Below are positions 13,636 through 19,320 of a stretch of DNA of 64,000 nt, in pieces. Below the pieces are notes generated by a model. The model had not been told where the DNA came from. It saw only the letters and a list, made by a program, of their open reading frames with translations, and did not search any database. The translations under genes were made by a program, and so were the position numbers. Each line of letters begins with the position of its first letter. Position 1 is the first letter of the stretch. This DNA is from an uncultured Spirochaetales bacterium (GTDB lineage: Bacteria; Myxococcota_A; UBA9160; SMWR01): positions 6,389-70,388 of the forward strand of contig CAZZFT010000010.1 in NCBI GenBank assembly GCA_964653555.1, in the 5' to 3' direction.

Positions 13636-14937
13636 TCAGCCCCGGCGGTCGAGGCGTGGGAACGCGCGTCCGATCGACGCGAGCCACTGCACCAGGCGTA
13701 CCGCGTGCAGACTCACCACGGGCTTGCCGCTGGCGCACAGGGCCACGGCGAGGGCGCGGTCCGGATCCGCCCAGGAGAAGGTATTGGTGAAGCCGATGTG
13801 GCCGAAGGCGTTCTCGTTGTCGACGCCGAAGAGGCTGACGCCGCTGCTGCCAAGCATGAAGCCGAGCCCGTAGCGGATCGGCAGCCCGAGCGTGAGATCG
13901 ACCTCCCACCACGCCGCTTCGCCGGTCGCGTGGCGTACCGTGCTCGGTGCGAAGACCTGGATACCGTTCTGCTCACCCCCGTCGAGCAGGCACTGGTAGA
14001 AGGCGCACAGCTCGCTCGCGGTGGAGACGATGTTCGCCGAGGGGACGATCCCGGTCAGGAAACGCGGGTCGTTCGCGATCGCAACCACCTGGTCGAGGTC
14101 GGCGCCGAGCGCGTTGCGCAGTACGATCGAGGCGGGGAAGGGCACCGGAGGACCGGTGACGGCATCGCGCGCCACGAGAGGAAGGTCTTCCTCGCGCACT
14201 CCATAGCGCATCCAGCGATAGCCGAGCGGCCCCACGATCTCGCGCTCGAGCACCGTGCGGATGTCGTCTCCGGTGACGCGCCGCACCACCTCGGCGAGTA
14301 CGAATCCTCCGGTGGCGGCGTGATAGGCGAGGACCCGCCCCGGTCGCGAGCGCAGTCGGGACTCGCACAGGATCTCCACCACCTTCTCGGGTCGGGCGAG
14401 TAGATCGAGGTCGAGAGACTCGGGAGGCAGGTTCGGGATCCCCGCCTTGTGGGAGAGCAGATGCCGCAGGGTGATGCGGTGCTTTCCGTGCTTCGCGAAC
14501 TCGGGAATGAAGTCGCAGACGCGGTCCTCCAGGTGGAGCACGCGCTTCTCGTCGAGCTTGTGGATCACCATCGCGGTGATCGCCTTGCTCGCGGAGAAGA
14601 TGTCGAAGGGCGTGCTCGTGCTGGCCGACAGCTTCGGCGCATCCGGGGGGTCGCCCGGCGCGTTGCCGCGCGCGTGGCCGATCGCCCGGTTCAGCACCAC
14701 CACGCCCCGGCGGCGCACGCAGAGCTGGAGCGCGGGGTGGACACCCGTGCGATAGAGCGCGACGACGGCGCTCCACACGCGCTCGACGTTGGCGGCCGGC
14801 ACGTCGGACCCGCCGGGATCCTCCCGGCCGACGTCGATCAGCCCGCTCGGGTCGCGGGGCACGCGGCAGCGCTTGATTCCGGGTATTCTCGCCTGGCCGA
14901 TCCAGTAGAGCGGATCCACGGCGGCCCTCGCGGTCAC
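13636..14937 (-). CDS. beta-lactamase-family serine hydrolase
   Basis: 433 aa. The GTG at 14937 overlaps the stop of the SWIM gene (GTGA). Has the Ser-x-x-Lys motif 'FSASKAIT', plus 'ITLRHLLSHKAGI' and 'FGHIGFTNTFSWADPD'. It is the tail of track ORF 13636..15810. Confidence 0.85.
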   Translation of the reverse strand: MTARAAVDPLYWIGQARIPGIKRCRVPRDPSGLIDVGREDPGGSDVPAANVERVWSAVVALYRTGVHPALQLCVRRRGVVVLNRAIGHARGNAPGDPPDAPKLSASTSTPFDIFSASKAITAMVIHKLDEKRVLHLEDRVCDFIPEFAKHGKHRITLRHLLSHKAGIPNLPPESLDLDLLARPEKVVEILCESRLRSRPGRVLAYHAATGGFVLAEVVRRVTGDDIRTVLEREIVGPLGYRWMRYGVREEDLPLVARDAVTGPPVPFPASIVLRNALGADLDQVVAIANDPRFLTGIVPSANIVSTASELCAFYQCLLDGGEQNGIQVFAPSTVRHATGEAAWWEVDLTLGLPIRYGLGFMLGSSGVSLFGVDNENAFGHIGFTNTFSWADPDRALAVALCASGKPVVSLHAVRLVQWLASIGRAFPRLDRRG

Positions 14938-16136
14938 TCGTCCCGATCTTCGTTGACCGGACCCGCTCCCAGATAGACGTCTAGGCCGGCGATCGAGGCA
15001 TTGCGGTAGATGCGGGCCATGGCGGCCTCGCAGTTGGATTGCCCGCGCCAGAACGGGAAGCCGCCGAGTCGCGCGACCACGGCACCCGGCTTGCGCGGGA
15101 TGCGCACCTCGATCTCCTCGTCGCGCGGGCGGGACGCTCCGCCCCAGAATGCGCCGGGGTCCTCGGGCAGCGGCTCGTCCGGGACGATCCGCTCGGGCGG
15201 CGGCTCGATCACCTCGGGGATCGGCGGCAGCTCGCCCAGCAGCTCGCCGTCCTCGTCGAATTCGTCGTACTCGTCCCGGAAGGACTCGGGGGGCGGCGGG
15301 GCGGGGGGCTTCGGGATCGCTGCCGACCCGAGGGCCGCCAGCAGCTCGCCGCGCTCCATTCCCCGCAGCTGGAAGATCAGGAAGGGATCGCGGTCGAACT
15401 CCTCCCCCAGCAGGTAGTAGACCGCCGCGATGTGCTTGCAGGGATTGGCGTTGTCCGGGCAGGAGCAGTTCGCCTTCAGGTCGCCGCTGGCGTTCGGAAA
15501 CAGCGAGAGGTTCTGTTCCTCGAACACGGCCAGGATCTCTTCGGGGATCTGCCCGCTGCCCAGCTCGACCGCGATGTCCGGTCGTTGGGTCAGTGCCTTC
15601 GTCACCTTCTTCCAGTCGGTGCTCGAGAGCATCGAGAAGTGCATGCGAACGAGATAGGGAGCGTCGCGCGACCCCTGGACGTGGGCGGTGACGAAGCCCT
15701 TGCCGATCTCGATGTCGACGATGTGTCCCTGGCGGGCGTAGTTGCGCCCGCGACCGAGGCGCCGCCCCACGGCGAACTTCTCGAGCACGTCGACCCAACG
15801 CCGCGCCCACCAGTTCTCCGCGACACGCCCGCGCCGGACCCTGCCGCGGTTGCCGTTGCGATGGGGGCGCCCCCGTCCCCGGTTCTGGGAGCGCGGGCCG
15901 CGTCGTTGGCCCTGGCGCTGGCCGCCGTTCGGCCGCGCTTCGGCGTCCTGCGGCGCATCCTCGCGCCCCCGGCTCGCGGTCTCCACTTCCCGATCGTGAC
16001 CGTTTGCGCCGTCGCTCCTGGCGTTTCCGCCCGGCTTCTCGCGGAATCCGCCGGGCCCGCGTCCGGCCGACCCGCGCCCACCGCGTCGCCGCCGCCGGCG
16101 TCGCCGCCGTCCTTCGTTTCCGGACTCTTCCGACAT
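14934..16136 (-). CDS. SWIM zinc-finger protein with Arg/Gly-rich N-terminal tail (partner of the SNF2 helicase)
   Basis: 400 aa. SWIM CxCxnCxH signature 'CSCPDNANPCKHIAAVYY'. The first ~105 aa are Arg/Gly-dominated, including nine consecutive Arg codons. The start lies 1 nt after the SNF2 stop. Confidence 0.85.
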   Translation of the reverse strand: MSEESGNEGRRRRRRRRRGGRGSAGRGPGGFREKPGGNARSDGANGHDREVETASRGREDAPQDAEARPNGGQRQGQRRGPRSQNRGRGRPHRNGNRGRVRRGRVAENWWARRWVDVLEKFAVGRRLGRGRNYARQGHIVDIEIGKGFVTAHVQGSRDAPYLVRMHFSMLSSTDWKKVTKALTQRPDIAVELGSGQIPEEILAVFEEQNLSLFPNASGDLKANCSCPDNANPCKHIAAVYYLLGEEFDRDPFLIFQLRGMERGELLAALGSAAIPKPPAPPPPESFRDEYDEFDEDGELLGELPPIPEVIEPPPERIVPDEPLPEDPGAFWGGASRPRDEEIEVRIPRKPGAVVARLGGFPFWRGQSNCEAAMARIYRNASIAGLDVYLGAGPVNEDRDE

Positions 16137-19100: not shown

Positions 19101-19320
19101 AGGTCGGGAGCCAGGCCGTGGCCTGGGCCTTGCGTCTCGCCGTGGGTCGAAATCCGATCGGCAGCTCGCGGGCAGCCCGAGTCACCGCCTCTGCACCGGC
19201 GTCGTAGGGATAGGGCCGAGCGCCCTTCCGCTGGCTCTTGCTCGGCGTCGCACCTTCGGCCGGTGACTCTCCCCAGAGGAAGAGCGCGCCGTCCAGGAAC
19301 GCGCCGTGCAGGATGATCAT
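16138..19320 (-). CDS. SNF2-family DEAD/DEAH-box helicase with N-terminal SNF2-associated domain (HelZ/RapA-like)
   Basis: 1060 aa from the ATG at 19320 ('[11 protein letters not shown]...'). Helicase motifs present: '[12 protein letters not shown]' (I), '[10 protein letters not shown]' (II), 'LTGTPVENH' (III) and '[37 protein letters not shown]' (V/VI). The 107-codon upstream extension in the track is Arg-rich and not credible. Confidence 0.9.
   Translation of the reverse strand: [1060 protein letters not shown]

Follow-up and report, generated by a model that had tools for sequence, protein, structure and literature searches.

The 64,000-nucleotide stretch of DNA analysed here (the window; contig CAZZFT010000010.1) carries three co-directional genes on its minus strand, encoding an SNF2-family ATPase (positions 16138–19320), a SWIM zinc-finger protein (14934–16136) and a PF00144 serine hydrolase whose gene ends at position 13636. 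The closest homologs of the locus are found in metagenome-assembled genomes of Myxococcota, on which ground a Streptomyces origin, suggested by the base composition, was rejected. The guanine-plus-cytosine (GC) content is about 71% across the window and stays flat at 0.68–0.71 over the locus, with no compositional break, and the flanking genes are common to the clade, which places the locus within conserved chromosomal synteny and not on a mobile island. We consider it probable that the locus is a chromosomal module of two genes, SNF2 and SWIM, which belongs to the SSO1653/SsoRad54 type and is inherited vertically, and that a LipE-like esterase, the serine hydrolase, stands next to it as a syntenic neighbour outside the SNF2-SWIM machine. 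Most likely, what is new at this locus is a tail variant of a known module, and the esterase is a passenger.

The SNF2 protein (1060 residues) has an identical product on record in public collections. An N-terminal sll1366-like region is followed by a DUF3670 domain (residues 403–539; 1.1e-31 in Pfam) and by the SNF2 motor (residues 588–1050), and the protein matches SNF2-rel_dom (PF00176, 4.8e-67) and Helicase_C (PF00271, 3.7e-19). The motor motifs are intact, with GLGKT and DEAQ visible in the translation. Among solved structures the motor comes closest to the Sulfolobus Rad54-like core, SsoRad54cd (1z63, E=1.2e-151), and the next-best protein in the PDB is ISWI (6pwf, 8.6e-74), so that the window protein stands closer to SSO1653. 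The NCBIfam model for RapA gives 34.6 bits against a cut-off of 576, and the SCO1167/SCO6262 and sll1366 families also match below their cut-offs. HelZ (Rv2101) of Mycobacterium tuberculosis is a protein that we take to belong to the same SSO1653 class. DNA remodelling has been described for SsoRad54, a translocase on double-stranded DNA (dsDNA), and a prokaryotic Snf2 subfamily with sll1366 and YwqA of Bacillus subtilis among its members is anchored by SSO1653 (PMC2677860). The assignment of the window protein as a putative ATP-driven dsDNA translocase of the SsoRad54 type is supported by this homology.

The SWIM gene begins one nucleotide after the SNF2 stop codon (gac tag c atg, read directly) and encodes 400 residues. 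PF04434 is matched at 31.6 bits (cut-off 19.6), and the CxCx6CxH zinc finger, CSCPDNANPCKH, occupies residues 218–243 (15408–15485, minus strand), with C224, C226, C233 and H235 invariant among 74 homologs. In the AlphaFold2 model the core (residues 109–275) is predicted with confidence (predicted local distance difference test, pLDDT, ~90). The sole resemblance that Foldseek found for this model in the PDB is to the SWIM region of ZSWIM8, and it is weak (E=0.43); a sequence search of the PDB with the SWIM protein gave zero matches, and no structure of a SWIM partner is present there. The core is followed by an acidic linker rich in Pro, Glu and Asp (residues 276–345; 15102–15311, minus strand), with a net charge of -15 by charge count. 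This linker is longer and more acidic in homologs with long tails (mean charge -12 vs -4 in canonical proteins), with a Spearman coefficient of -0.39 over 85 homologs that is uncorrected for phylogeny.

Homologous loci, designated below by L numbers, were fetched with the SWIM protein as query (80 from species-representative genomes and 49 from metagenomes). The SNF2-SWIM order could be seen in about 120 of them, and an SNF2 gene (42–92% identity) lies immediately upstream of the SWIM gene in nearly all loci with enough upstream DNA. The gaps between the two genes are mostly of -11 to +7 nt, and these near-zero distances suggest coupled translation of two subunits. The pair spans Thermodesulfobacteriota, Planctomycetota, Chloroflexota (Dehalococcoidia), Acidobacteriota and an archaeon, Methanosarcina. 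It is a known, near-universal module of the SSO1653/SsoRad54 type; the sequence-only reading had taken the two proteins for a known conserved bacterial duo. In a scan of 136 open reading frames (ORFs) around the pair, drawn from about 40 diverse genomes, each family was seen three times at most, which leaves the pair with no recurrent third partner. A literature search returned nothing under "DUF3670", and it found bacterial SNF2-SWIM operons not specifically treated beyond PMC2677860, PMC7385302 and PMC5512222.

The main departure of the window from canonical pairs lies at the N-terminus of the SWIM protein, where residues 1–108 (15813–16136, minus strand) form a polycationic tail recognized by composition, pLDDT and clade conservation. 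It contains 30 Arg (28%) and 23 Gly (21%), includes the string RGRGRPHRNGNRGRVRRGR and has a net charge of +18; together with the linker at -15, it makes the SWIM partner electrostatically bipolar. Residues 10–18 (16083–16109, minus strand) are a run of nine Arg, the local form of a motif R6-[P/S]-R3, encoded by CGG CGG CGA CGC CGG CGG CGG CGA CGC. This mixture of codons indicates that the run is not a pure microsatellite. Among the 52 window genes supported by GC content at third codon positions (18,769 codons, 9.4% Arg), no second run of Arg reaches six residues, and the chance expectation for a run of nine in that set is ~1e-5. The only other Arg run of at least four in these genes is an R5 at residue 23 of an acyltransferase (PF01553; 25160–26560, minus strand).

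Comparison with the homologs revealed a tail built of three elements in a clade whose named members are Myxococcota metagenome-assembled genomes. It starts with M(S/E)EE…G-R6-[P/S]-R3-xRG, continues through a Gly/Asn/Pro/Ala/Glu linker of very variable length and ends in an RGRGRG…RRGR block abutting ENWWARRW, the whole tail measuring 66–216 residues. A CCG-to-CGG change in the window puts Arg in place of the motif's Pro and so yields the run of nine. The canonical SWIM N-terminus is different, with about 34 residues of the form M..W.Y..Y.PS.PR..KGGIKAQSKRG.FG.SWW; its KGGIKAQSKRG.FG motif is absent from the window protein, which keeps only the ENWWARRW junction. This makes the window protein a variant of the family and not a non-member. 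The tail is kept in homologs down to ~48% core identity, and in about 16 loci the Arg codons of the motif vary synonymously at nearly every position while the residues stay Arg. This synonymous turnover implies purifying selection on the peptide, and hence that the tail is translated. AlphaFold2 predicts residues 1–105 as disordered (pLDDT ~45). Conservation and purifying selection of the tail are thus observed, and its disorder is a prediction. An Arg/Gly-rich N-terminus of about 105 residues with nine consecutive Arg had been noticed in the sequence-only reading; it is borne out as a tail of 108 residues, conserved in orthologs with synonymous turnover. The term RGG-like fits this tail only loosely: the 108 residues hold a single RGG against nine RG and eight GR, besides the poly-Arg.

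One locus (L085, 7620–8060) keeps its Arg-rich tail whole but for a single stop, in frame and 23 codons ahead of the core. Public annotation begins this protein at MAEN (299 residues), and either a sequencing error or a natural tail-less variant is possible.

Two further groups of loci carry SWIM proteins with N-terminal extensions of about 100–130 residues rich in RG, with MNERGGRGRGTGRGFGRRKFF… and MSKRPGGGGGNRGSWGRRKF… as examples (L108, L064, L046, L107 and L110–L114 in one group; L116, L118, L119, L122, L131 and L073 in the other). These extensions precede a retained GI(K/R)AQ(S/T)K motif, and the named members of the groups are Acidobacteriota (Bryobacterales, Candidatus Sulfopaludibacter and Acidobacteriales). 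Their presence indicates that elaboration of a basic N-terminal arm is recurrent in the family, and this elaboration appears to be convergent.

The third gene (13636–14919, minus strand) encodes a LipE-like family VIII carboxylesterase with a beta-lactamase fold, probably of 427 residues, an assignment based on Pfam, NCBIfam, the PDB and the N-terminus. PF00144 is matched at 9.8e-55 (Pfam), and the SxxK (SASK), Tyr (YHAATGG) and HxG (GHIG) motifs align to Esterase A (5gkv), which with 7y3z, 5gmx and 3zyt, all family VIII esterases, makes up the closest relatives in the PDB. The NCBIfam model for lipase LipE gives 406 bits, with residues 17–422 placed on positions 2–406 of 407; the score lies below the equivalog cut-off of 750, which makes the protein a relative of LipE and not an ortholog. 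A signal peptide is absent from the hydrolase. All orthologs share the N-terminus MDPL(Y/H)W, which corresponds here to a GTG at 14919, 14 nt past the SWIM stop and preceded by a Shine-Dalgarno-like GAGGG, in agreement with public gene calls. An alternative GTG at 14937 overlaps the SWIM TGA (GTGA) and would give 433 residues; given the conserved N-termini, the GTG at 14919 was preferred to it. The layout first proposed, a 1-nt spacer followed by a GTGA overlap into a 433-residue hydrolase, consequently holds for the spacer between SNF2 and SWIM and for the existence of the overlapping GTG, and gives way at the second junction to the likelier 14-nt spacer and shorter protein. This spacer and its GAGGG make read-through from the SWIM gene into the esterase gene likely in the window genome.

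An esterase ortholog (58–84% identical) follows the SWIM gene in about 20 of the 26 informative loci of the Arg-tail clade, at a distance of -1 to 61 nt in close relatives and of 116–517 nt in others. Outside the clade it is absent beside the pair in all fetched loci. Within the clade it is also absent from L002/L003, L086, L093, L094 and L030, where the SNF2-SWIM pair stays. In L002/L003, whose SNF2 protein is 83% identical, convergent genes stand in place of the esterase, and in L086, the closest locus at the DNA level, the SWIM stop is directly followed by the conserved intergenic sequence, the integrase ORF and the second esterase (both described below) that come after the hydrolase in the window. 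The esterase was lost repeatedly while SNF2-SWIM is retained; in a neighbour-joining tree of the SWIM core, which is of low resolution, the absences are interspersed among the presences. In L136 a P450 gene on the opposite strand lies between the SWIM and esterase genes, and the esterase then heads a series of genes (hypothetical, aldolase, luciferase-like monooxygenase), past which a P450 gene lies on the reverse strand. In L004 the esterase gene overlaps a downstream P450 gene by 4 nt, and over the clade loci its downstream partners are P450, DUF6151, aldolase and monooxygenase genes. Homologs of the esterase with 63–66% identity and the same N-terminal signature occur in unrelated neighbourhoods.

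Unrelated flanking genes served as a control for synteny. Of the 11 clade loci whose upstream DNA reaches far enough, some of them without the esterase, all 11 have a PspA-like gene and eight a histidine kinase gene; downstream, genes for DUF72, acetyltransferase and pyrroloquinoline quinone (PQQ) proteins are common to genomes with and without the esterase. As the unrelated PspA and kinase neighbours are kept as well or better, the adjacency of the esterase is no better than background synteny in this lineage. None of the PspA-like, hypothetical and kinase genes lies beside the pair outside the clade. The proposal that the operon is extended by a hydrolase accordingly stands as far as position goes, given that the hydrolase follows SWIM in about 20 related loci; its functional part is unsupported, the arrangement being that of one sub-lineage and repeatedly lost.

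Upstream of the SNF2 gene in the window lie a PspA/IM30-like gene, a gene for a 185-residue hypothetical protein and a histidine kinase gene (20009–21219, minus strand, and 21364–24066, plus strand). A regulator with a helix-turn-helix (HTH) and a Cupin_2 domain is found near a LipE-like esterase in three contexts, one of them lacking SNF2-SWIM (L134, 2115–2714; L136, 10961–11512; L137, 2209–2766), which hints that the HTH-Cupin_2 protein is the esterase's own regulatory partner.

Downstream of the esterase, at a distance of 211 nt and outside the SNF2-SWIM unit, lies an N-terminally truncated XerC/D-like tyrosine recombinase ORF of 199 residues (12825–13424, minus strand; PF00589) that comprises the catalytic domain only. 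NCBIfam Xer models align to it over their C-terminal ~170 positions only, no N-terminal core-binding domain is encoded in any frame upstream of it, and the His of its HxxR motif is replaced (AEVLRR). An ortholog is present in L086 (1047–1643) and not in L004, L084 or L085. It shares ~90% protein identity with the L086 counterpart, compared with ~82% for the surrounding DNA, and motifs in the upstream intergenic sequence are also kept; the ORF may be a truncated gene that has been maintained, and not a pseudogene in decay. It marks a local downstream rearrangement and not a mobile defence island carrying SNF2-SWIM. The integrase relic that the three-gene unit had been said to abut is therefore real as a truncated ORF close to the hydrolase, and forms no part of the unit. 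Beyond it, a second esterase of the beta-lactamase fold, LipL-like by Pfam and NCBIfam (386 residues, 33% identical to the first; 11473–12633, minus strand), begins a same-strand run with an SDR gene (10178–11203), an amidohydrolase gene (8387–10153), a luciferase-like monooxygenase gene (7520–8374) and a flavin adenine dinucleotide (FAD) oxidoreductase gene (5990–7513).

The SNF2 start is preceded, at a distance of ~520 nt, by a non-coding core of 34 nt, GGGGTTGCGnAAnCnnACCCCGATCGTGTTCACT (19839–19872, minus strand). Six genomes (the window, L085, L084, L002, L004 and L129) share it almost unchanged, the flanking intergenic sequence diverging. Within it are the palindrome CGATCG and an inverted repeat, GGGGT…ACCCC, that is imperfect. 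This core, which has no match in Rfam, is a candidate for a promoter or an operator serving the SNF2-SWIM operon. A reading as a LexA box, based on the delta-proteobacterial consensus, was tried and gave a poor match, and no claim is made of it. A scan for promoter and terminator consensus sites returned a number no higher than in shuffled sequence, and an Rfam scan of positions 12500–21500 gave zero matches. A tRNA-Pro(cgg) called by ARAGORN at 16946–17018 (plus strand), antisense within the SNF2 gene, is almost certainly a false positive; Rfam has no tRNA there at E<=1.

These observations bear on several other explanations of the locus. One is a genuine three-component, clade-specific system in which the esterase would be co-expressed with SNF2-SWIM and serve as a functional subunit or as an effector, for instance by taking off an ester-linked modification or by working on a ligand that regulates the remodeler. 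Its catalytic motifs are indeed intact, and it stands directly downstream and in the same direction in those ~20 loci, which extend over three sub-clades, with a gap that is mostly of -1 to 61 nt and, in the window, with the GAGGG in the 14-nt spacer. Against this, the pair survives the loss of the esterase in L002/L003, L086 (a clean absence), L093, L094 and L030, the two are parted by an inserted opposite-strand P450 in L136 and by 116–517 nt elsewhere, and the unrelated PspA and kinase flanks are equally or better conserved, as expected of background synteny. Close homologs of the esterase also live away from any SNF2-SWIM pair, the L004 esterase overlaps the P450 downstream of it, and no third gene recurs around the pair elsewhere. 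We regard such a system as unlikely, though worth keeping in mind. A bolder version, to which we give a slightly smaller chance, holds that the SWIM partner of the Myxococcota lineage, and convergently that of Acidobacteriota, evolved a eukaryote-like poly-Arg/RG arm balanced by the acidic linker, producing a charge-gated remodeler associated with the nucleoid or with condensates, with the esterase perhaps a true co-expressed accessory. Quite improbable, in our judgement, is an anti-phage or anti-plasmid defence or nucleic-acid surveillance module on or beside a mobile-element remnant, as the sequence-only reading had suggested. SNF2 motors do occur in Zorya, DISARM and Dpd, SWIM-associated SNF2 ATPases are also found in mobile elements according to Iyer et al. 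(PMC5512222), and the integrase fragment is near the esterase; the PADLOC models DpdE, ZorD and DrmD match the window motor with E-values down to 1e-128. Those matches are nevertheless restricted to the generic motor (residues ~555–1050), and the NCBIfam scores fall far short of their cut-offs (ZorD 280 vs 1500, DrmD 87 vs 950, DpdE 49.5 vs 500). PADLOC gave no matches for the SWIM protein, both esterases and two other adjacent ORFs (five ORFs scanned), and ZorABC, DrmA/B/C with the methylase, and DpdA-K were not found, the flanks in Pfam and NCBIfam being PspA-like, kinase, esterase, SDR and similar genes; on the absence of known defence partners the earlier reading was right. The conserved chromosomal flanks common to the clade and the flat GC argue in the same direction, as do the truncation of the integrase ORF and its place beyond the esterase, beside metabolic genes, and the pair neighbourhoods in about 40 diverse genomes, which hold only sporadic defence or toxin-antitoxin genes. 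Membership in a defence system was rejected, as the PADLOC and NCBIfam scans match the motor only.

The tail itself could be an untranslated or neutral low-complexity sequence, due to a mis-called start or to GC-driven drift. A GC content of 71% works in favour of codons for Arg, Gly, Pro and Ala, the central part of the tail is highly variable in both length and sequence, and the in-frame stop in L085 would allow the core to restart at MAEN. This explanation is nonetheless hardly credible, as the M(S/E)EE...R6-[P/S]-R3 start and the core-adjacent RG block are conserved over the clade with synonymous turnover, the SWIM ATG stands 1 nt past the SNF2 stop as in canonical pairs, the other 51 window genes have no comparable Arg run, and the canonical basic KGGIKAQSKRG is absent, so that the tail substitutes for it. 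The preferred reading, a chromosomal two-gene module with a selected tail and a neighbouring esterase, has points against it as well. No experiment defines the role of the SNF2-SWIM pair in any bacterium, and YwqA of B. subtilis, listed among translocases that interact with RNA polymerase, is called "poorly characterized" (PMC7385302). We infer the nucleic-acid binding of the tail from charge and disorder only, and part of its composition may reflect mutational bias, given the codons that high GC favours. The retention of the esterase in ~20 of 26 clade loci, down to ~65% SNF2 identity and with near-zero spacing in the closest relatives, is compatible with a real operon and leaves some room for a functional link, and the neighbour-joining tree that places the losses is built on a 170-residue core and is weakly resolved.

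Under the two-gene reading, the SNF2 motor would remodel DNA or protein-DNA complexes rather than unwind DNA. The SNF2 and SWIM proteins would form a complex in which SWIM acts as the targeting or regulatory subunit of the motor, and the translationally coupled junction with its 1-nt spacer would supply this partner in a fixed proportion to it. The basic N-terminus of the partner may contact nucleic acid, and in this clade it would have been enlarged to a polycationic arm, a non-specific nucleic-acid-binding element that could raise affinity for DNA or RNA or favour association with the nucleoid. The co-expanded acidic linker of Pro, Glu and Asp may mask or gate this arm. The esterase is probably read through from the SWIM gene here, yet would not be a component of the SNF2-SWIM machine; it can be seen as a neighbour by synteny that borders a variable block of genes for small-molecule metabolism, and it is presumably active on esters of small molecules or lipids, alongside the variable metabolic genes downstream.

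The SNF2-SWIM pair is among the most widespread prokaryotic gene pairs still lacking a known function. The strongly selected expansion of the tail points to the SWIM N-terminus as a functional element, probably one in contact with nucleic acid, and the selected poly-Arg/RG arm is the most useful lead from this locus, as it offers a handle on the role of the SWIM partner. The esterase carries a caution: an adjacency kept within one lineage can be background synteny, and unrelated flanks should be compared before a system is called extended.

Among known systems, Zorya ZorD, DISARM DrmD and Dpd DpdE share with the window protein a homologous SNF2 motor domain. They differ from it in that the N-terminal regions are unmatched, the partner genes are absent and the cut-offs are missed widely, and the window locus is chromosomal and syntenic. 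The esterase resembles LipE (Rv3775)/LipL and the EstA-type esterases (5gkv, 3zyt, 5gmx, 7y3z) in its PF00144 fold, its catalytic motifs and its lack of a signal peptide; it is set apart from mycobacterial LipE by its score below the equivalog cut-off, and its position downstream of SWIM is lineage-specific. With eukaryotic RGG/RG-box tails and viral arginine-rich-motif (ARM) tails the SWIM N-terminus shares a disordered, strongly cationic, Arg/Gly-rich segment placed beside the folded domain of a nucleic-acid enzyme partner, a likeness known here from sequence and predicted disorder that implies no homology. The window tail has one RGG only, and its hallmark is the homopolymeric R6-[P/S]-R3, poly-Arg not being a feature of RGG boxes. 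A further comparison is with the SSO1653 subfamily that has a SWIM neighbour. The likeness extends to DUF3670 and an SNF2 motor with all ATPase motifs, to a CxCxnCxH SWIM partner encoded directly downstream with a near-zero gap, and to a dsDNA-stimulated ATPase or translocase activity that would be expected by analogy with the biochemistry of SsoRad54 (PMC2677860). The difference lies in the SWIM partner, which in canonical pairs begins with the ~34-residue W.Y..Y.PS.PR..KGGIKAQSKRG.FG N-terminus and here carries a disordered Arg/Gly tail of 108 residues and an expanded acidic linker.

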